Below are positions 1,354 through 9,122 of a DNA stretch of 64,000 nt, in pieces (positions within the stretch are counted from its first letter, which is position 1; each line of letters begins with the position of its first letter). This DNA is from Candidatus Woesearchaeota archaeon (GTDB lineage: Archaea; Nanobdellota; Nanobdellia; Woesearchaeales; GW2011-AR4). The DNA lies in NCBI GenBank assembly GCA_016185755.1, contig JACPMX010000006.1, positions 98,644 through 162,643 on the forward strand, written 5' to 3'. Below the pieces are notes generated by a model, which searched no databases, was not told where the DNA came from, and saw only the letters and a program-made list of their open reading frames with translations. The position numbers and the translations under genes are program-made.

Positions 1354-2838
1354 ATGAGGCTCAAAGTAAGGGACATAGACATTTCCAGCGGCGGCCCCCT
1401 GGTTGCCGTTATGAACAAAGAGGACGCTGCAGCGCTTGACTTGCACGTGATGGACAGGATAAAAATAAGGAAAAACGGCAGGATTGAAACTGCAGTTATC
1501 GACATTGCGCAGAGCAGCAAGATTGTGCCGAAGGGAAAGCTTGGGGTTTTTGAGGAGGTCATTTCTTCATTGAAGCTGAAAAACAATGACGCAGTTGAAA
1601 TTTCCATTGCCAGAAAGCCCTTGTCCCTCGATTACATCAAGAAAAAGCTTGACGGCCGCAAGCTGGACAAAAAGGAAATCAACCAGATAGTGTGGGACAT
1701 TGTGCACAACAAGCTGAGCGCAGTCGAGCTTACATATTTTGTCGCTGCCTGCTATACAAATGTGATGTCAACAGATGAGACGCTGCTTCTTACAAAAGCA
1801 ATGGTCAGTCATGGCGATACCCTGAAGCTTAACAAATATCCGGTCATTGACAAGCACTCCATCGGGGGCATTCCGGGCAACAGGACTACAATGGTTGTTG
1901 TCCCCATAATGGCTGCTGCAGGCTATTTCATGCCGAAAACAAGCTCCCGCTCCATAACAAGCCCTGCAGGCACAGCAGACACGATGGAGGTTCTTACGAA
2001 TGTAACATTTCCAATAAAAAAAATGAAAGAGATAGTGCTGAAAACGAATGGCTGCATAGTGTGGGGTGGCTCCCTCAATCTTGCGCCTGCAGACGACAAG
2101 ATAATATCTGTCGAGAGGCCGCTGGAGATAGACGCTGAAAGCCAGCTTCTTGCATCCATAATGGCAAAAAAGCATTCCGTGTCAAGCACACACATACTTA
2201 TTGATATTCCTGTCGGCAACAACACGAAAGTGAAAAATAGGGCAGGGGCATTCAGGCTCAAGAAGGAGTTTGAGAAGATAGGCAGGAAGCTCAGAAAGCA
2301 TATCAGGGTTCTGGTTACAAACGGAAAGCAGCCCATCGGCAACGGCATAGGGCCTGCCCTGGAGGCAAGGGATGTGCTCTGGCTGCTTAAAAGAGATCCC
2401 CGCAGGCCCCTTGATTTGGAGAAAAAATGCCTTTTCATGTGCAGCCAGATATTTGCCATGGTTGGCATAAAGAATGGCCACAAGCGCGCTCTTGAAATAC
2501 TTGACTCGGGAAAAGCATATCTCAAGATGCTGCAGATAATAAAGGCCCAGGGGGGAAAAGAGACTGCGGCAGAGGACATAAAGATAGGCGGGTTAAGCTT
2601 TGATGTCTTGTCTGCAAAAAAGGGGAAACTTGTATTTATAGACAATCACCTGGTTTCAAGGATTGCAAGGATTGCCGGGGCTCCAATCGACAAGGGAGCG
2701 GGGATTTACCTCTACAAGCACCTTAATGATAAGATAAGAAGAGGAGAGAAATTATTCACAGTTTATGCAGAAAGCAAGCGGGAGCTTGAATATGCGAAGG
2801 ATGTTGCAAAGCAGAATAAGGTTTTTGTGGTGAGATGA
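1354..2838 (+). CDS. AMP phosphorylase (archaeal thymidine-phosphorylase family enzyme)
   Basis: 494 aa. Extra N-terminal domain MRLKVRDIDISSGGPLVAVMNKEDA typical of archaeal AMP phosphorylases, followed by a glycosyltransferase family 3 core with HSIGGIPGNRTT and SPAGTADTMEV. Confidence 0.75.
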   Translation: MRLKVRDIDISSGGPLVAVMNKEDAAALDLHVMDRIKIRKNGRIETAVIDIAQSSKIVPKGKLGVFEEVISSLKLKNNDAVEISIARKPLSLDYIKKKLDGRKLDKKEINQIVWDIVHNKLSAVELTYFVAACYTNVMSTDETLLLTKAMVSHGDTLKLNKYPVIDKHSIGGIPGNRTTMVVVPIMAAAGYFMPKTSSRSITSPAGTADTMEVLTNVTFPIKKMKEIVLKTNGCIVWGGSLNLAPADDKIISVERPLEIDAESQLLASIMAKKHSVSSTHILIDIPVGNNTKVKNRAGAFRLKKEFEKIGRKLRKHIRVLVTNGKQPIGNGIGPALEARDVLWLLKRDPRRPLDLEKKCLFMCSQIFAMVGIKNGHKRALEILDSGKAYLKMLQIIKAQGGKETAAEDIKIGGLSFDVLSAKKGKLVFIDNHLVSRIARIAGAPIDKGAGIYLYKHLNDKIRRGEKLFTVYAESKRELEYAKDVAKQNKVFVVR

Positions 2839-3176
2839 ATTGTTCTAATGACATATCATATTTTTAGATAACTTCAAAATTTTATTCAATCTTCACTAAA
2901 ATAATTTAAAATTTCCTCTAAGCCTTCTGCGAATTGCTCCAATAAATCATTAAAATCAATGTTAATATTTAAGATAATCATAAAAAATCACACTCCGAGT
3001 GTAATAAATAAGAACTAATATTTATTTGTACACTTTTTATTCTAAAATAACCAAACATTTGAGTTGAATAAAACCTATATTCTTAGTTTAAAAACTAGAG
3101 TTATATAGTTACTATACAAAATGAAGAATATAAAAGAAAAGTTTTTATATAGTTCTAAAGATTAAATTAATTGGGG

Positions 3177-3659
3177 ATGGTTCAATACAAAAAAGCAGAA
3201 TTGGAACTAGACCGTGAAAAATTTGTGTTTGAAGCAAAATTTCATTGGCTAATATTTATTGGAACACTACTATTAAGTTCAATTCTAGGATATTATGCTG
3301 CCGTAAACCAAAAAAACACAATTGCTATGGTAGTTCTAGGTGTGTTTATGGCAGCAATGACAATTGCGATGATTATGCAGTACTTTAATGTTATCAGTCA
3401 ATTTAAAAAAGTTGGTGAGAGATATACCAAACTGATAGGAAACAAGACAGCAAAGAAACAGGCGAGTCTTTCTGAAAAAAGAAACTTTTGGTTATCTGTT
3501 ATGGCAAGCTTTTTAACTATTATGGTTTTAACTGCAGGTGATATTCTAGGAAGTTTGTTTGGATTTACTCATTTTTGGTCTAATATATTCATATTTGGAC
3601 TTTCAGCTATAGCCATTTTTATAATATCAATTAGATATTTTACCAATACACCAAGATAA
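3177..3659 (+). CDS. hypothetical membrane protein
   Basis: ORF with four predicted hydrophobic helices in an AT-rich segment. First ATG at 3177 (the track ORF begins at 3171 with TTG). Confidence 0.5.
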   Translation: MVQYKKAELELDREKFVFEAKFHWLIFIGTLLLSSILGYYAAVNQKNTIAMVVLGVFMAAMTIAMIMQYFNVISQFKKVGERYTKLIGNKTAKKQASLSEKRNFWLSVMASFLTIMVLTAGDILGSLFGFTHFWSNIFIFGLSAIAIFIISIRYFTNTPR

Positions 3660-3729
3660 AAAATGATAGATTTTTCTGGTAGCTAAGACTTGCTTTGATA
3701 ATTATAGTTTAGTAATCACAAAAAATAAA

Positions 3730-3853
3730 CGCCGACGCCCGGATTTGAACCGAGATACCCTTTCGGGAACCAGCTCTCAAGGCTAGCGCAATGTTCCCCA
3801 GCGGAAAACTGCGAAAACTTCGTTTTCGCGCTTCCAGGTTATGCGACGTCGGC
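3730..3853 (-). tRNA. tRNA-Ser(TGA) with one non-canonical (D-loop) intron
   Basis: Minus strand: acceptor GCCGACG/CGTCGGC, discriminator G. D stem GCA pairs with TGC only after a ~40-nt insert (about 3792-3831). Anticodon arm CTAGC-CTTGAGA-GCTGG, long variable arm TTCCCGAAAGGGTA, T arm CTCGG-TTCAAAT-CCGGG. Confidence 0.8.
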
Positions 3854-3953
3854 ATTCAGAAAAAGATTAAGCTTTATTATAAATTTATTGATTGAATTCA
3901 GCGCCCGTGATGTAGAATTACTTTATAAACTTCATGCAATAGATACCCTGTTG

Positions 3954-4139
3954 TTATTTTTTAGGCATCAGCACCGGAATTCCATCATTTATCGGATATT
4001 TCTCCCCGCATCCTGAGCAGACAAGCCCCTTCCCGTCATTTGTATATTCAAGGTCTGCCTTGCAGAGAGGGCATGCCAAAATGTCAAACAGCTCCTTTGG
4101 TATGGGTTCTTCCCCGCTTTTTTGCTCTTTTTTCCGCAT
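3954..4139 (-). CDS. Trm112-like zinc-ribbon protein
   Basis: 61 aa with LACPLCKADL...LVCSGCGEKYPINDGIPVLM, the Trm112/UPF0434 pattern. Confidence 0.7.
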   Translation of the reverse strand: MRKKEQKSGEEPIPKELFDILACPLCKADLEYTNDGKGLVCSGCGEKYPINDGIPVLMPKK

Positions 4140-4148
4140 TTTGCCCGA

Positions 4149-4157
4149 AAAATGACC
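4149..4157. repeat. target-site duplication, left copy (AAAATGACC)
   Basis: The identical 9-mer recurs in direct orientation at 8058-8066. Each copy sits one nucleotide outside the inverted termini. Confidence 0.65.
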
Positions 4158-4158
4158 A

Positions 4159-4218
4159 GCTTTGCACTTTTATTAACCCTATTTATGTGCAATCGGTATT
4201 TCTGCACATTTTTTAAAG
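4159..4218. repeat. left terminal inverted repeat region
   Basis: The reverse complement aligns with 8020-8056 in two blocks: 19 of 20 nt with one indel, and 14 nt with a 4-nt indel. It overlaps the 3' end of the transposase ORF. Confidence 0.6.
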
Positions 4219-5339
4219 TTTACGTCTATTCCAAGTTCCAGCGACTCCTGAATCAAAACGCACAGGTTGTGGGCAAGGCATTTAGCCAGAATCTCGTTGT
4301 TTTGCGAAACTTCATTTCTCGACCTCAAGTGGTCTCCAAATTTCCGCTTTAGCATGTTGAACGTGCTCTCGACATTGCTTCGCTTGTGATAGTGCATAAG
4401 GAAATCCTCCCTCTTTTGCATGTAGTAAAGGTACATCTTACGCCATATCTCAGAGCCACGCTGCTTCCCTGTTGCGTTGCTCTTGAACGGGATGAAGGCT
4501 ATCCCTCCTGCATTCTGGACAGCTTCAAGGTTATCCCTTGAGGAATACCCTTTGTCTGCGGAAACCTCCCTAATGCCGTATATTTGGCTTGTCGTACTAA
4601 TCAAGTCACCAAACTGAGGACTATCGGCGTAAGTGCCCTTCGTGATTTTGGCTGCGGTTATTATGTTCGTCCTCACGCCACAAGTCAGATGTGTCTTCCT
4701 GAATCGTCTCCTGTCCGAATCCTTGCCTGTCCTTGCGTCAAACCAAGGGTCATAAAGGCTTGTGGAAAACCCAGAAGAATCGACTGCAAAATCCGTCTCA
4801 ACTTGCTGCAACGGCAATCCTGAGACATTGACAAGGTGCTTGAAATAGACTTCCAGATTGGTGTCTTTCAGGCATTTCAGGATGGTGTTGAAATGAGGTG
4901 TCTTGTCTACGAATCCAAGCTGCCTGCATAGCTCCAAGTCCGCAATGCAGCGTCTGGAACTCTTGATGTTGTAGGCCTGCAAGGTAAGGTAGAAAATCTT
5001 GTCTTTTGTCGGGATTGGATTTCTTCCAACGCCTCTTTTTGTCTCTGGAAATGGAATTGAATCAAGAAGTTCGTTTAGGATGCTAATTAGCAAAGTCTTC
5101 TCCCGCATCTGGGCTTCGTTGTAACTTGGCCAATCTTGCGGGTAAGTTTTCTTTTCGCCGAATGGTTTTGGTACGTATTCCTCGAATTTTGGTTTCCTCT
5201 GTTTTCCATGCTCCAATTCATTTTTCACCTTCTCCAATACTCTGGAGAGGTCTTCGTAGATATCAAATTCTATCGAATGTTTTTTATACTCAGAGAACTC
5301 CTTACTGCTCTGAGGACTATTTTGTGCTTCGCGGTACAT
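4179..5339 (-). CDS. DDE transposase (IS4/IS5-type)
   Basis: Acidic triad context AVDSSG, SADKGYSS, NVESTF. Y-x2-R-x3-E-x6-K signature YHKRSNVESTFNMLK. ATG at 5339 is preceded by GGAGGA (the track ORF extends to a GTG at 5420). Confidence 0.8.
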   Translation of the reverse strand: MYREAQNSPQSSKEFSEYKKHSIEFDIYEDLSRVLEKVKNELEHGKQRKPKFEEYVPKPFGEKKTYPQDWPSYNEAQMREKTLLISILNELLDSIPFPETKRGVGRNPIPTKDKIFYLTLQAYNIKSSRRCIADLELCRQLGFVDKTPHFNTILKCLKDTNLEVYFKHLVNVSGLPLQQVETDFAVDSSGFSTSLYDPWFDARTGKDSDRRRFRKTHLTCGVRTNIITAAKITKGTYADSPQFGDLISTTSQIYGIREVSADKGYSSRDNLEAVQNAGGIAFIPFKSNATGKQRGSEIWRKMYLYYMQKREDFLMHYHKRSNVESTFNMLKRKFGDHLRSRNEVSQNNEILAKCLAHNLCVLIQESLELGIDVNFKKCAEIPIAHK

Positions 5340-5531
5340 TTTAGCTCCTCCTGACCTTAAGCCTTCGGGCTTTTGGTCGGTACTTTTAAGCATGATAATT
5401 TGTGAAAGGTAAGCACACACCCCATGCTTGGTTGTTCATACAATTAACCTCCGTCTGGGCCTAAGAGGGGTGGCTTCTCCGCTTACCTTTAATTTGGTAA
5501 ATTAACATATATTTAAATCTTTTGGTTAGTA

Positions 5532-5640
5532 TGTGTATGTGTGTATAAATACTTTAATCTCTAAACTCTGGTTTTTGTGTGTATATACACTCATTTTAAC
5601 ACTTTAGAAAAGTTTATAAAACAAACACATATACACATAT
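5532..5640 (+). promoter_or_regulatory. operator-like GTGTATA repeats and TATA box upstream of the RHH-DGQHR gene
   Basis: TGTGTATGTGTGTATA (5532-5547), perfect palindrome GTGTATATACAC (5579-5590), TTTATAAAA (5613-5621), and ACACATATACACATAT (5625-5640) abutting the ATG. Confidence 0.4.
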
Positions 5641-5641
5641 C

Positions 5642-7048
5642 ATGGGAAGAATACAAGTAGTTCTTAAGGACGAGACTGAAACAGAATTTAGAAATTTTTT
5701 AGCTAGAGAAGGTAGTATGAAAAAGGGAGAAATATCTCAAGAAATTGAAAGGTTGATAACAGGAGCAATCAGCACAGAGAAAATTGGAGATATAGGATTT
5801 ATTAAACAAGATTCCTCATTAGAAATTAATGATATTACTAAGGACCAAATAAAAGAGTTTTATGATAAAATAGAATTGTTAGAAAAAAAATTTGGACAAA
5901 CATTAATTTTATTGATTGACAAAAGAATTGATGCTTTATACACTGAATGTCATATAAGTAGTAAGGATTTAATTGGCAACATGGATCTAGACCCTTCAAT
6001 TGACCAAGAATATCAAGAAGAATTTAGAGCTAACAGGAATTTTGAAGAAGATAATCCAGATTATTTAGTTATGGTTGAAGATGCAAAAAATGGGAGACAA
6101 TTCTCCGATATAGTTATTGAATATAATTCATCAGAAAAATATTCTAAATCATTTAGACCATTAAAAGTATATGGCGGTCAACATAGATGTCATGCCATCG
6201 AAGAAGCCTATAAAGATAATGTAAATAGGTATCATGGGACAAGAGTTTATTTTAATCTGGATAAAGACCAAAGAGGGAATATTGCTATAGTATCAAATAC
6301 TAATATTCAAGTATCCAATGATTTAAGAGACAGGCTCAATGAACAATCACTCGACCCCCCAAATAAATTAAGAGATTTTTGTTATAAAATGGGGTTGTTG
6401 GATGAAAGTAAAAAGCAAGATTTTAGTTCTAAAAAACATAGTAAAGAAGCTCTTCCTACAGTAAGAGCAATGAGAACTTTTGTTGTTAATTTCCATCTAG
6501 GCAAGGAAGACCAAAGAAAGTTTGATGAAAAACCAATAGTTCCACCTCTTTGCGAAACTGGTGGTTCTGATGATAAATATTTAAAAATATACAAAAAGAA
6601 AAATTTTGTTGAAGAATCTGATTTAGTGGATGCAGGCTTGAATTTTGTAAAACTATGTAATAAACAAAAAGAGAAAGCTGATGGTAAATCAAAGAATATG
6701 GCTTTAACGTTAGCCATAGTTGCTAGTTGGTCTTATGCAGCAGGTTTATTGCAAAAAGACAAAACAAGATTGAAAAAACTATATTCGTTACCAGATGCCA
6801 CAATTAAAGAGCCATTAAATTCAAATGCTTTATCAAATGCAAGAGGTAAGGATGACTTAAAAAATTATCGTGGTTTAATAACTAGATATGGCGAAAAGGA
6901 AAGGGGAAGATTACTACAAATATTTTTAACTTATTCGAAATCAGCTAAAAATGAAATCTCACTAGAAATGTGTAATTATGCTATTAAATTATATCATTCA
7001 AAAAAGGAAAATCAAGAACTAGAGGACTTGGCCAACAGGGTTTATTAG
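5642..7048 (+). CDS. RHH-domain / DGQHR-domain (DndB-like, ParB-fold) protein
   Basis: 468 aa. N-terminal ribbon-helix-helix-like RIQVVLKDETETEFRNFLAREG...ISQEIERLI, and a central KVYGGQHRCHAIEEA that matches the DGQHR signature. AT-rich coding sequence. Confidence 0.6.
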   Translation: MGRIQVVLKDETETEFRNFLAREGSMKKGEISQEIERLITGAISTEKIGDIGFIKQDSSLEINDITKDQIKEFYDKIELLEKKFGQTLILLIDKRIDALYTECHISSKDLIGNMDLDPSIDQEYQEEFRANRNFEEDNPDYLVMVEDAKNGRQFSDIVIEYNSSEKYSKSFRPLKVYGGQHRCHAIEEAYKDNVNRYHGTRVYFNLDKDQRGNIAIVSNTNIQVSNDLRDRLNEQSLDPPNKLRDFCYKMGLLDESKKQDFSSKKHSKEALPTVRAMRTFVVNFHLGKEDQRKFDEKPIVPPLCETGGSDDKYLKIYKKKNFVEESDLVDAGLNFVKLCNKQKEKADGKSKNMALTLAIVASWSYAAGLLQKDKTRLKKLYSLPDATIKEPLNSNALSNARGKDDLKNYRGLITRYGEKERGRLLQIFLTYSKSAKNEISLEMCNYAIKLYHSKKENQELEDLANRVY

Positions 7049-7057
7049 ATTTTGCAG

Positions 7058-7894
7058 CTAATTGTTATTTGATAAAATAATTGGTATGTCTATAGGCTTT
7101 GCGTCTGAAATTTCTTGAATTTCTTCTTCTGTAAATTCATTAGCATTAATAAAAAAATCACCAAGTTCTATCAAATCATTATTTATAGTGTTATATTTTG
7201 TGTTACCTGTTGGCGATAGATAAGCAAACAGAATGATTATTTTACCTAATTGTTCCCTCACTAGCTTAATTGATTCTGTTAAATCAGAATCACCAGACAT
7301 AAGGATTGCCACATCATATGCATTCGAATGAGCAAATTTTATTAAGTCTGTTGCTAATTTGACATCGACGCCTTTTTGCCTTATATACCCTTCCCTATTC
7401 ACTAATGGTGTTGTTCGACGTTCAAATTTTGATTCTCTAACTTTTTTAAAGAAATCTTTTTGTTGCTCAGCCTGTGCCGCTTGATTATCCATAGCATCAA
7501 ATTTTGATTGTCTAATTTGTTCAAACTTCGTTTTTACAATATTGACATGCTGCCTAATCTCTGATTTTAAAATATTAGTTCCGCTCATTCCTTCGACTTT
7601 TTGGAGTAATTGGACTTCATTTTTTATCAGTTCATTCATATCGGTTATAGTGTTAAAACAGTCCTTACGAAATATTCCTAGCACCTTTGGAGTATACTCT
7701 CCTGTATAGATATACGTCCTAACCACTTCAAATAATTTGCTTCTGTCTTCTAATAACTCTTGTGTTTTCTTTACAATCAGTTTGTGAAAATCGTGGAATT
7801 TCCAGTCTCTTTTATCAGAAGGAGGTCTACGGTAGTTTAAACGCTCAAGACTCTTTATAGAATTTGCAGCATCATCAAAAACAATTATTTTCAT
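7058..7894 (-). CDS. NYN/LabA-like domain protein
   Basis: 278 aa with KIIVFDDAAN at the N-terminus and GVDVKLATDLI...YDVAILMSGDSDLTESIKLV, the LabA-like NYN pattern, split by a charged insert. Confidence 0.6.
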   Translation of the reverse strand: MKIIVFDDAANSIKSLERLNYRRPPSDKRDWKFHDFHKLIVKKTQELLEDRSKLFEVVRTYIYTGEYTPKVLGIFRKDCFNTITDMNELIKNEVQLLQKVEGMSGTNILKSEIRQHVNIVKTKFEQIRQSKFDAMDNQAAQAEQQKDFFKKVRESKFERRTTPLVNREGYIRQKGVDVKLATDLIKFAHSNAYDVAILMSGDSDLTESIKLVREQLGKIIILFAYLSPTGNTKYNTINNDLIELGDFFINANEFTEEEIQEISDAKPIDIPIILSNNN

Positions 7895-7907
7895 AAGCAG
7901 GAAACAT

Positions 7908-7950
7908 GAGGGTATAGTTGCTTTCCGTTATATAGAAAGCACATACCCTC
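7908..7950. promoter_or_regulatory. nested inverted repeat upstream of the NYN gene
   Basis: GAGGGTAT-agtt-GCTTTC-cgttatata-GAAAGC-ac-ATACCCTC gives 8-bp and 6-bp arms around a TATA-like loop, 14-56 nt upstream of the start at 7894. Confidence 0.4.
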
Positions 7951-8019
7951 TAGTAAATATAACTTTTAATAGATAGATATCCTTATATTTAAATATTTCT
8001 ATATTTATGTGCAAAATGC

Positions 8020-8056
8020 CTTTAAAAATGTGCAGAAAATGATTAATGTGCAAAGC
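8020..8056. repeat. right terminal inverted repeat region
   Basis: CTTTAAAAATGTGCAGAAA...TTAATGTGCAAAGC is the inverted counterpart of 4159-4218. Confidence 0.6.
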
Positions 8057-8057
8057 C

Positions 8058-8066
8058 AAAATGACC
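8058..8066. repeat. target-site duplication, right copy (AAAATGACC)
   Basis: Direct repeat of 4149-4157. Confidence 0.65.
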
Positions 8067-8082
8067 GAAAGCTTTATATATA
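8065..8082 (+). promoter_or_regulatory. BRE/TATA-like element upstream of tfb
   Basis: CCGAAAGC followed by TTTATATATA. It lies about 115 nt upstream of the tfb ATG, and a second A/T box (TTAATAAATT, about 8152-8161) lies closer, so the promoter assignment is uncertain. GGTGA Shine-Dalgarno-like motif at -12. Confidence 0.3.
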
Positions 8083-8195
8083 ACCTATTTCTACTTCTTT
8101 ATAAATCTTGTTAATGTTATCGACATACACTTTATTCGGGGGAAGAGGGTGTTAATAAATTTTTGCTTAAACAAAATTATGCAGGTGACTGAAAA

Positions 8196-9122
8196 ATGCC
8201 AGAACTAGTGAAGAAATGCCCGGAATGCGGCGGTATAAACCTTTCATGGAACAGGGATAGGGGGGAGATTATTTGCAGGGACTGCGGTCTGGTTATAGAA
8301 GAAAAAATGGTGGACTTCTCGCAGGAATGGAGGGAATTCGACTCAGAGGAAGGCGAGAAAAGGAGAAGGTCAGGCGCTCCAATGACTTACACCCAGTACG
8401 ACCAGGGCCTTGGGACAGAAGTTGGCCAAAAAGCTGACTTGCTCAAGCTTGGCGGAAAAGACAGGAACAAATTCTTCAGGCTAAGGAAATGGCAGTACAG
8501 GATATCAACTGCTATCGAAAGAAACCTTAAATTAGCATTGGCTGAGCTTAAAAGAGTATCTTCATATTTAAAATTGCCAAAGTCAGTTGAGGAAGAATCA
8601 GCAAGGATATACACTTTGGCTGTCCAGAGAGGCCTTGTCAGGGGAAGAAGCATGGAATCTGTTGTTGCAGGCGCTTTGTACGCTGCATGCAGAAGGCATG
8701 ATGTCCCAAGGACTCTTGACGAATTGTCAGAAGCTTCAGGCATTGAAAAGAAGGAAGTCGGAAGGACTTACAGGTTTGTCACAAGGGAGCTTGGAATCAC
8801 GATTTTGCCGAGCAATCCAGCAGATTACATTGCAAGGTTCGCATCTGCATTGAAATTAAGCGCAGAGACCCAGTCAAAATCAATCGAGATTCTTGAGCAG
8901 GCCCAAAAAGCAGAATTAACAAGCGGCAGGGGCCCGACAGGAATAGCCGCAGCTGCCCTTTATGTATCTGCATTGATACATGGCGAGAAAAGAACGCAAA
9001 GGGAAGTGGCAGATGTAGCAGGAGTTACAGAAGTTACAATCAGGAACAGGTACAAGGAATTGCTCGACGAGCTTGACCTTGAAGACGACATCAAGAAGAC
9101 AAAGAAAAAGAAGAAGAGATAA
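8196..9122 (+). CDS. tfb: transcription initiation factor IIB (TFB)
   Basis: N-terminal zinc ribbon CPECGG...CRDCG and two cyclin-fold repeats with typical TFB sequence (RGRSMESVVAGALYAACR, GRGPTGIAAAALYVSA). Confidence 0.95.
   Translation: MPELVKKCPECGGINLSWNRDRGEIICRDCGLVIEEKMVDFSQEWREFDSEEGEKRRRSGAPMTYTQYDQGLGTEVGQKADLLKLGGKDRNKFFRLRKWQYRISTAIERNLKLALAELKRVSSYLKLPKSVEEESARIYTLAVQRGLVRGRSMESVVAGALYAACRRHDVPRTLDELSEASGIEKKEVGRTYRFVTRELGITILPSNPADYIARFASALKLSAETQSKSIEILEQAQKAELTSGRGPTGIAAAALYVSALIHGEKRTQREVADVAGVTEVTIRNRYKELLDELDLEDDIKKTKKKKKR

Follow-up and report, generated by a model that had tools for sequence, protein, structure and literature searches.

A 3,900-bp segment of the window analysed here, a 64-kb stretch of contig JACPMX010000006.1 from a Candidatus Woesearchaeota archaeon, is with a probability of roughly 0.88 a real mobile element of a DPANN-type archaeal host, this estimate covering both its identity and its boundaries. 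The segment contains one transposase gene and two passenger genes and lies between two host genes, one for a Trm112-like zinc-ribbon protein and one for TFIIB (tfb). An earlier note made from the bare sequence had proposed that the mobile unit is this whole segment and not a 1.3-kb insertion sequence (IS), and the boundaries, the target-site duplication (TSD) and the long relatives described below support that proposal. The coordinates of all features are collected in Table 1.

The 9-mer AAAATGACC is found exactly twice in the window, both times on the plus strand, at the two places where it had been reported. The left junction reads ...CCCGA AAAATGACC / AGCTTTGCAC... (4149-4167) and the right one ...GTGCAAAGCC / AAAATGACC GAAAGC... 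(8048-8071). The inverted termini seen earlier, GCTTTGCAC at 4159-4167 and its complement at 8048-8056, are present, but the single nucleotide that seemed to separate each of them from the duplication is the terminal base of the element itself (A4158 and C8057; the family consensus is RGCTTTG...CAAAGCY). The duplication therefore abuts the 3,900-bp unit without a gap. A second copy of a given 9-mer is not in itself rare (an estimated 0.7 or so would be expected in 128 kb); the chance of such a copy exactly abutting an inverted terminus is of the order of 1e-5.

On the left, five related transposase loci align with the window through ...GTGCAAAGCT and diverge at the next base, and the end is kept to its last base in L001-L004 with divergence immediately outside. 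The right boundary is fixed by the inverted terminus and the 9-bp duplication. One related contig, L003, whose transposase is 75 % identical to that of the window, starts exactly on GGCTTTGCAC and has its transposase-proximal end 5,756 bp away.

Each end of the element carries one terminal and two subterminal copies of a motif of about 12 nt, and the two ends are asymmetric. At the transposase-proximal end the terminal AGCTTTGCAC (4158-4167) is followed by an inverted subterminal copy, ATTTATGTGCAAT (4181-4193), and by the inner TTTCTGCACATTTTTTAAAG (4199-4218). At the distal end the three copies all point the same way, at intervals of about 20 nt: ATTTATGTGCAAA (8003-8015), AAAAATGTGCAGA (8024-8036) and, at the terminus, ATTAATGTGCAAAGCC (8042-8057). 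The inner inverted block that had also been noticed earlier corresponds to 4199-4216 and 8021-8038, which are 94 % complementary. Three repeats in this asymmetric arrangement also occur in the relatives, where the motif sequence differs from element to element, and the repeated motifs are putative transposase-binding sites. With up to two mismatches allowed, no end motif is found within 4220-8000, which leaves no alternative right end near the transposase start and extends the earlier observation that none lies between that start and 5640. Nor did a transposase copy turn up that shares the left end and has a different right end 1.3-1.5 kb away, which the earlier note had held to be incompatible with a long unit.

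The organization is not that of a composite transposon, in which two IS copies surround the cargo, as there is one transposase gene and the right end consists of 55 bp of repeats. It is that of a unit transposon or transporter IS (tIS), with one transposase, passengers inside one pair of inverted termini and one target duplication. Rfam and ARAGORN gave no match over 3000-9000.

Table 1. Features of the element and its surroundings in the window (a slash marks the junction between host and element)
Feature	Position	Strand	Remarks
Trm112-like zinc-ribbon gene (host)	3954..4139	-	PF03966, 1.5e-13; ATG 9 nt from left duplication
Left 9-bp TSD	4149..4157	+	AAAATGACC; directly adjoins left terminus
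Whole transposon, 3,900 bp	4158..8057	.	One transposase and two passenger genes; termini and duplication; 20 relatives alike
Transposase-proximal end	4158..4218	+	Overlaps last transposase codons
DDE transposase, 386 aa	4179..5339	-	PF01609; IS5 family, IS903 group
Divergent intergenic region, 302 bp	5340..5641	.	Between transposase and 468-aa gene; no Rfam match
468-aa passenger protein	5642..7048	+	N-terminal RHH, ParB/Srx-like domain, helical C-terminal half
NYN-domain (PIN-like RNase fold) protein, 278 aa	7058..7894	-	PF01936; convergent with 468-aa gene
Transposase-distal end	8003..8057	+	Three same-orientation motif copies about 20 nt apart
Right 9-bp TSD	8058..8066	+	AAAATGACC; adjoins right terminus
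tfb (TFIIB) (host)	8196..9122	+	PF00382 and PF08271
Filled left junction			…GAAAAATGACC/AGCTTTGCAC
Filled right junction			GTGCAAAGCC/AAAATGACCGAAAGC
Reconstructed empty site, 20-mer			CCCGAAAAATGACCGAAAGC

The transposase and a clade of long relatives

The transposase gene, read from the ATG at 5339 and called with the same 386 aa in the Logan contig L084 (an upstream GTG at 5420 would yield 413 aa), matches PF01609 (DDE_Tnp_1) with E = 6.8e-21 and 75.4 bits against a cut-off of 23. The residues D187, D262 and E324 and the signature Y317-R320-E324-K331 (Y-2-R-3-E-6-K) are invariant in 30 homologues. A tblastn search against plasmids returned only IS5-family elements at 23-26 % identity, including IS903B, ISVa2, IS17 and ISEc35, and there are thousands of transposase homologues, mostly in DPANN archaea. 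The termini of IS903B were read directly from a 1,057-bp copy on a K. pneumoniae plasmid as GGCTTTGTTGAATAAATC... and ...GATTTATTCAACAAAGCC (also read as ...CAACAAAGCC and GGCTTTGTTG); those of the window element are GGCTTTGCACAT and AGCTTTGCACTT (GGCTTTGCAC and AGCTTTGCAC), and the relative L073 has AGCTTTGTTGAATAAGT. As termini of the GGCTTTG type and the 9-bp duplication both match IS903, the element is placed in the IS903 group of the IS5 family, of which the transposase is, judged by its sequence, a distant branch. The earlier guess of an IS4/IS5-type family was thus correct and can be narrowed down.

Like IS903 and IS903B, the window element combines a DDE_Tnp_1 transposase bearing the YREK signature with a 9-bp duplication and termini that start with GGCTTTG. 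However, IS903 is a 1,057-bp, one-gene element with simple 18-bp inverted repeats, whereas the window element has 3,900 bp, two passengers and three asymmetric motif copies per end, its transposase is longer by about 80 aa at the N-terminus and its host is an archaeon. With 3,900 bp and three genes it thus lies outside the transposase-only format of about 1 kb that characterizes the IS903 group.

A profile search built from an alignment (a single-sequence search found nothing) led to 79 loci fetched from species-representative genomes, in which a complete element was defined by RGCTTT...AAAGCY termini and a perfect 9-bp duplication. Apart from the window element, the terminus-based search recovered 18 complete elements. 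Seventeen of them were found again by a motif-free search, which also yielded L024, and L092 was contributed by the loci of the 468-aa passenger family. The total is 20 further complete elements with perfect 9-bp duplications, all but one of them longer than 3.4 kb: 1,802, 3,401, 3,665, 4,681, 5,150, 5,214, 5,459, 5,463, 5,466, 5,754, 6,075, 6,285, 6,397, 6,627, 6,754, 6,938, 7,619, 8,454, 8,470 and 10,914 bp. According to the record titles, their hosts are Woese-, Nano- and Aenigmatarchaeota, Thermoplasmatales, Methanosarcinales/Methanoperedens, Methanomicrobia and one Pyrinomonadaceae bacterium. The transposase gene occupies one extreme end in every complete element.

A census of the 93 cargo open reading frames (ORFs) of these 20 elements is dominated by DNA modification and restriction: N6_Mtase (8 matches), Eco57I (5), C5 methylase, D12 methylase, MmeI_Mtase and HSDR_N_2 (4 each), TaqI_C (3) and N6_N4_Mtase (2), with single matches that include NgoPII, MvaI/BcnI, NgoFVII, AIPR, PDDEXK_11, EVE and SocA_Panacea. 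When clustering and targeted scans are combined, a DNA methyltransferase is present in at least 16 of the 20. Exceptions are L020, which carries a TrkH transporter, and the 1.8-kb L027, which carries a 95-aa DUF2569 protein. Elements of this clade predominantly carry restriction-modification and defence genes. The window element itself has no methyltransferase or known restriction-enzyme domain in Pfam, NCBIfam and PADLOC scans and in this respect, unlike most of its sister elements, does not qualify as a restriction-modification unit. The earlier remark that the cargo has no obvious transposition or resistance role has to be revised: the main cargo of the sister elements is restriction-modification and defence genes, so a defence or addiction role is likely.

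Individual loci of the clade deserve mention. The complete 4,681-bp element L092 consists of a transposase gene, a homologue of the 468-aa protein and a C5 methyltransferase gene. A complete 7,619-bp member (L039:3386-11004, TSD CTCAGCAAC) resides in a member of the Pyrinomonadaceae (Acidobacteriota) and carries genes for an HTH protein, an IS1/IS240-like fragment and DUF5343; its host shows that the clade crosses the boundary between archaea and bacteria. In L004:1-5400 (transposase 76 % identical), genes for DprA, a phosphoribosyltransferase and two C5 methylases lie upstream of the transposase. No second end was found within the 5.4 kb available, and this element is either longer than 6.5 kb or has a decayed far end. 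Right ends were likewise not found for L001, L002 and L004, where either the contig does not reach far enough or the end lies beyond 5 kb. L007:813-5791 has 19-nt perfect inverted termini 4,979 bp apart and no matching 9-bp duplication; it could be a rearranged or recombined copy.

The passenger genes

The 468-aa protein belongs to a rare, unannotated family: among 5.8 billion proteins there were 134 homologues, none of them named, and an exhaustive search with a hidden Markov model found 293 representative clusters. Its N-terminal RHH_6 match is weak (2.9e-4), and NCBIfam and PADLOC scans of the protein as well as a PDB sequence search with its profile gave no match or nothing meaningful. Invariant residues of the family are found in PLKxxGGQHRxxAI, YFNL, NTNI and DLxDR. 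The AlphaFold2 (AF2) model of the full-length protein has a mean confidence (pLDDT) of 87.7, and five of its top seven Foldseek matches are ParB, Noc or PadC, none of them significant. With a model of the core domain (pLDDT 69), the top 11 matches are all of the ParB/Srx fold, although weak, and include PadC, pNOB8 ParB, sulfiredoxin, the serine kinase SerK and SbnI; the best of them, PadC, has a probability of 0.91 at E = 0.04, and TM scores range from 0.34 to 0.50 among the matches.

The earlier note had labelled this gene RHH-DGQHR. As a statement of remote homology the label is tenable, since at permissive thresholds family members match weakly TIGR03187 'DGQHR' (31 of 42 members, best 7.4e-4) and the Pfam model DndB (19 of 42, best 1e-3), with E-values near the reporting limit. 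However, the window protein itself matches none of TIGR03187, PF14072 (DndB) and PF03235 (DUF262) at E ≤ 1, and the motif of the family is GGQHR, not DGQHR. The protein is best described as a divergent DGQHR/DndB-like member of the ParB superfamily with an N-terminal RHH domain. With the DGQHR, DndB and DUF262 (COG1479) proteins its family has in common a GGQHR motif in a putative ParB/Srx-like fold and neighbours of the HEPN, PD-(D/E)XK, HD and methyltransferase types. The window protein differs from them in its N-terminal RHH domain, its long helical C-terminal half and a nuclease partner that is encoded by a separate gene and not fused.

The genomic context of the family was read at 84 loci. 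In 55 of 64 loci the close downstream gene is a co-directional and often overlapping ORF of 163-181 aa with an invariant R...H motif, for which 6 of the 37 proteins scanned match RiboL-PSP HEPN. In the clade nearest to the window protein the slot of the HEPN gene is otherwise filled, namely by a C5 methylase (L092), an N4/N6 methylase and a ResIII helicase (L093), a D12 methylase (L003, L117), an HD + OB protein (L101) or a PD-(D/E)XK gene with type III Mod and Res (L103). On the other side, the divergent gene immediately upstream encodes a DDE_Tnp_1 transposase in 12 of 52 loci, an IS240-type transposase in three and a restriction enzyme or methylase in several more. The transposases beside 468-aa homologues are of different lineages with 30-75 % identity to that of the window. 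A distinct DDE_Tnp_1/DUF772 transposase of 520-530 aa takes the same divergent position in L093:6191-7765, L101:2106-3701 and L103:5634-7199, and type III restriction-modification, HD or PD-(D/E)XK genes follow behind these pairs. Co-evolution of the transposase with the 468-aa protein was considered and dropped: identities to the window do not co-vary, the transposase and the 468-aa homologue having 75 and 46 % in L003 and 32 and 64 % in L105. The 468-aa module has thus been shuffled between elements. This context pattern agrees with the description of COG1479/DndB, in which ParB-like domains are fused or linked to HEPN, PD-(D/E)XK and HNH nucleases beside DNA-modification systems (Makarova et al. 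2013, PMC3632139). A literature search for the combination of RiboL-PSP, HEPN and ParB found nothing relevant.

The second passenger, the NYN-domain protein, matches PF01936 with E = 4.2e-15 (57 bits against a cut-off of 24.2) and PADLOC HEC-09 with 5.1e-13 over profile positions 35-185 of 203. Its close homologues are few (30). HEC-09 is a PADLOC candidate defined as a single NYN/MARF1-like gene; it has been found embedded in Hma systems, whereas the NYN gene of the window rides in a transposon.

The two passenger genes converge, and their stop codons are 9 nt apart. Ahead of the 468-aa gene a TATA-like TTTATAAA is placed about 25 nt from the ATG at 5642, in the intergenic region that separates this gene from the transposase. 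GC content drops across this region (5340-5641) from about 41 to about 30 %, and similarity to the relatives L001 and L003 ends at about 5372-5378. That the passengers are more AT-rich, as stated earlier, is borne out by the GC values of 30.8 % for the cargo, 44.7 % for the transposase gene and 41 % for the flanks. In nearly all elements of the clade the cargo is lower in GC than the transposase; the step in the window is thus a feature of the clade and does not prove that the cargo had a separate origin. Just left of the locus, at 2800-3700, GC is again low (23-34 %); this second stretch includes a 162-aa, apparently membrane-bound ORF at 3171-3659, so low GC is not unique to the transposon cargo.

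The insertion site and the age of the insertion

A 92 %-identical orthologue of the NYN protein is encoded in a Nanoarchaeota metagenome-assembled genome and in Hainich groundwater contigs, where the gene order is tfb - 91-aa ORF - NYN - IleRS - PolB. Contig L182 of this relative aligns with window positions 7059-8124 at 88 % identity, and its tfb is 82 % identical. Similarity ends exactly at the NYN stop codon, and the relative has no 468-aa gene, transposase or Trm112 gene at the locus. It does keep the right-end repeats: ATTTATGTGCAAA and AAATGTGCAGAA are present, the tip has decayed to TTAATGTG-AACCC, and beyond it come AAAAAAACC and GAAAGCTTTATATA, in this order. The earlier note had named relatives with the passengers at this locus but without the terminal repeats as evidence to the contrary. 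Such a relative exists in part, as NYN stands at tfb without the transposase or the 468-aa gene, but the retained, decayed repeats take away its force.

The presence of the right-end repeats and NYN at the same tfb site in the relative implies that the common ancestor already had the insertion, and it confirms the position of NYN within the right end of the element. The insertion is therefore old and not a recent arrival, having taken place before the lineage of this relative, now about 12-18 % divergent, split off. A simple local deletion was rejected as the source of the state seen in the relative because the window has neither IleRS nor PolB. The relative probably retains a truncated orthologous insertion whose left part was lost through a larger rearrangement. 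As a side observation, the 91-aa ORF (L182:1639-1914, also in L179-L183) lies in an insert of about 350 bp between the conserved GAAAGCTTTATATA block and tfb, which the window does not have.

Contigs from eight Logan runs contain the element with 100 % identity, and the same filled left junction is found in another sample, L096. The first base of contig L084 is exactly 4158, and the last base of L085 is 8087, 30 nt past the terminus at 8057. If k = 31, as this reading of contig ends assumes, both ends would correspond to branch points of the de Bruijn graph at the element junctions, and the element would occur in more than one context in these samples.

The insertion has also changed the surroundings of the Trm112 gene. 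A palindromic TATA-like GCTTTATATATA (8071-8082), which in the empty site would be about 24 nt from the Trm112 ATG, is now 3.9 kb away from it. The left end of the element supplies another TATA-like sequence, TTAATAAAAG (4168-4177, minus strand), about 28 nt from the same ATG, and the transposase gene lies just upstream and is co-directional with Trm112. Expression of Trm112 may now start from inside the transposon. Further left, a stretch at about 3728-3855 on the minus strand is tRNA-like, with acceptor ends GCCGACG / CGTCGGC, a GGTTCAAATCC T-loop and a long insert; a variant of it occurs in L096. ARAGORN and Rfam made no tRNA call there, and it could be an intron-containing or split tRNA of the type typical of DPANN.

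Mechanism, competing explanations and significance

The preferred account is that of a single-transposase unit transposon, or transporter IS, that inserted into the short Trm112-tfb intergenic region and duplicated 9 bp of target. Its transposase would bind the repeated motifs, pair both ends and move the whole 3.9 kb, with staggered target cuts 9 bp apart as expected of IS903-type DDE transposition. On the side of the cargo, the 468-aa protein with its RHH and ParB/Srx-like domains would probably be a sensor or regulator that binds DNA or nucleotides (NTP), and the NYN protein, with its RNase fold, a likely effector. The cargo might benefit the host or stabilize the element, as restriction-modification on the sister elements would. 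As restriction-modification and defence genes are the main cargo of these sister elements, a role of the window cargo in defence or addiction is more plausible than a housekeeping function, and we give defence about an even chance.

A number of observations weigh against this account or against parts of it. The best NCBIfam model for the transposase, NF033579 'IS5 family', reaches 129.6 bits and stays under its cut-off of 140, and identity to named IS903-group transposases is only 23-26 %. The ParB/Srx fold matches of the 468-aa protein all have E ≥ 0.04. Within the 64-kb window there is no second copy of the element and, by tblastn, none of the transposase. When the flanking proteins, Trm112 and TFB, were looked up by exact match, no empty site was recovered, only the filled left junction of L096 and a 995-bp tfb contig; recent mobility of this copy is unproven. 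As for the NYN protein, HEC-09 gave no protection against the phages tested (bioRxiv 10.1101/2024.01.29.577857). A functional pairing of the two passengers is weakly supported: their arrangement is convergent and not that of an operon, in particular not the tight, co-directional two-gene operon of type II toxin-antitoxin systems. None of the 84 other loci of the 468-aa family contains an NYN gene, and the other NYN homologues stand alone, with no 468-aa gene beside them. With no co-occurrence from either side, the idea of a conserved pair was dropped, and the two genes may be independent passengers rather than one system.

That the locus could instead be an ordinary IS of 1.3-1.5 kb beside two unrelated resident genes, with distant repeats that match by coincidence, is suggested by the size of classical IS903-group elements (about 1.06 kb, one gene) and by a cargo GC very different from that of the transposase gene. 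We consider this highly improbable, as the region 4220-8000 is free of end motifs, the duplication is unique and abuts both termini, 19 of the 20 relatives with perfect duplications exceed 3.4 kb and a cargo GC below that of the transposase is the rule in the clade. Hardly any weight can be given either to an integrated plasmid, a virus-like element or a genomic island of the integrase type: Pfam and NCBIfam scans found no replication, capsid or integrase gene in the segment, and a DDE-type 9-bp duplication with inverted termini stands in place of a tRNA or a long att-like repeat. Several related contigs are indeed roughly of the size of the element (L009, L010, L059, L071), but such contigs are the usual assembler output for repeats.

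A two-step history, in which an older element with NYN inserted at tfb and recombination with a related element later replaced the transposase, alone or together with the 468-aa gene, would leave the unit a transposon, with parts of different history. It would account for the relative that keeps NYN and the right-end repeats at the site without the other two genes. It would also fit the sharp GC step at about 5400-5500, the identities of transposase and 468-aa protein that do not co-vary in L003 and L105, and the point about 40 nt upstream of the ATG where similarity to the closest transposase relatives ends. However, loss by rearrangement explains the relative equally well, since IleRS and PolB are absent from the window, and both copies of the duplication and both termini are intact there, so that such a mosaic is unlikely. 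Quite improbable, in turn, is a role of the 468-aa protein as a transposition accessory factor (a regulator, target selector or immunity factor) instead of a passenger. Its DNA-binding RHH domain and ParB-like domain would suit that role, as would the location of its gene, which lies immediately next to transposase genes of several lineages and is transcribed away from them (the IS903-like ones with 30-75 % identity and those of the 520-530-aa DDE_Tnp_1/DUF772 type). However, about 37 of the 52 homologues with a readable upstream gene have no adjoining transposase, most homologues form a tight operon with a HEPN RNase instead, and the weak matches across the family are to the defence-associated DndB/DGQHR proteins. 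Moreover, among the complete TSD-flanked elements that transposase similarity brought up, the 18 others all lack a 468-aa homologue, which in this comparison is limited to the window and L003.

The unit transposon that thus remains preferred shares with the transporter IS of ISfinder/TnCentral its single transposase, terminal inverted repeats, target duplication and passengers inside the repeats. Transporter IS are said to occur in the IS1595 and IS66 families only, whereas the window element falls in the IS5/IS903 group and the cargo of its relatives reaches about 9.5 kb. Mobile restriction-modification units with inverted repeats and short target duplications are known from bacteria, and no archaeal case survived the selection in that study (Furuta, Abe & Kobayashi 2010, PMC2853133). 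Tn7-like transposons with defence cargo have also been described, with bacterial examples (Benler et al. 2021, PMC8649781). Both have defence or restriction-modification genes inside transposon ends, as here. However, Tn7-like elements depend on multi-protein machinery, in contrast to the single IS903-like transposase found here mostly in DPANN and methanogen-related archaea. Passenger-carrying DNA transposons have been stated to be undetected in archaea (Krupovic et al. 2019, PMC6563490), and Tn7-family elements in archaea were reported only in a 2025 preprint. A literature search found no description of IS903-group cargo transposons in archaea, with or without restriction-modification genes. 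The large clade of similar transposons, mostly with restriction-modification cargo, is apparently undescribed. What appears to be new is the archaeal IS903-group cargo transposon, while IS with passengers and the mobility of bacterial restriction-modification systems on transposons are known.

A more far-reaching proposal, which we put forward tentatively and with some doubt, is that this unrecognized IS903-group clade, with elements of 3-11 kb and asymmetric multi-repeat ends, is a main vehicle for restriction-modification and defence genes among DPANN and methanogen-related archaea and some bacteria, and that the rare RHH + GGQHR protein found repeatedly on such elements may form the centre of a hitherto unknown defence or addiction system whose nuclease partners are exchangeable (HEPN, NYN, HD, PD-(D/E)XK and methyltransferase-linked). 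The GGQHR family, with its ParB/Srx-like domain and swapped nuclease partner, is in any case a candidate defence component. The compact and well-delimited ends, of about 60 bp each, could possibly serve as a genetic tool. DPANN archaea have small genomes, and their mobile elements are poorly known. The locus in the window and its 20 TSD-flanked relatives indicate that a simple IS903-type transposase can move several kb of cargo in archaea, and they suggest a concrete route by which immunity genes may spread horizontally among DPANN archaea.

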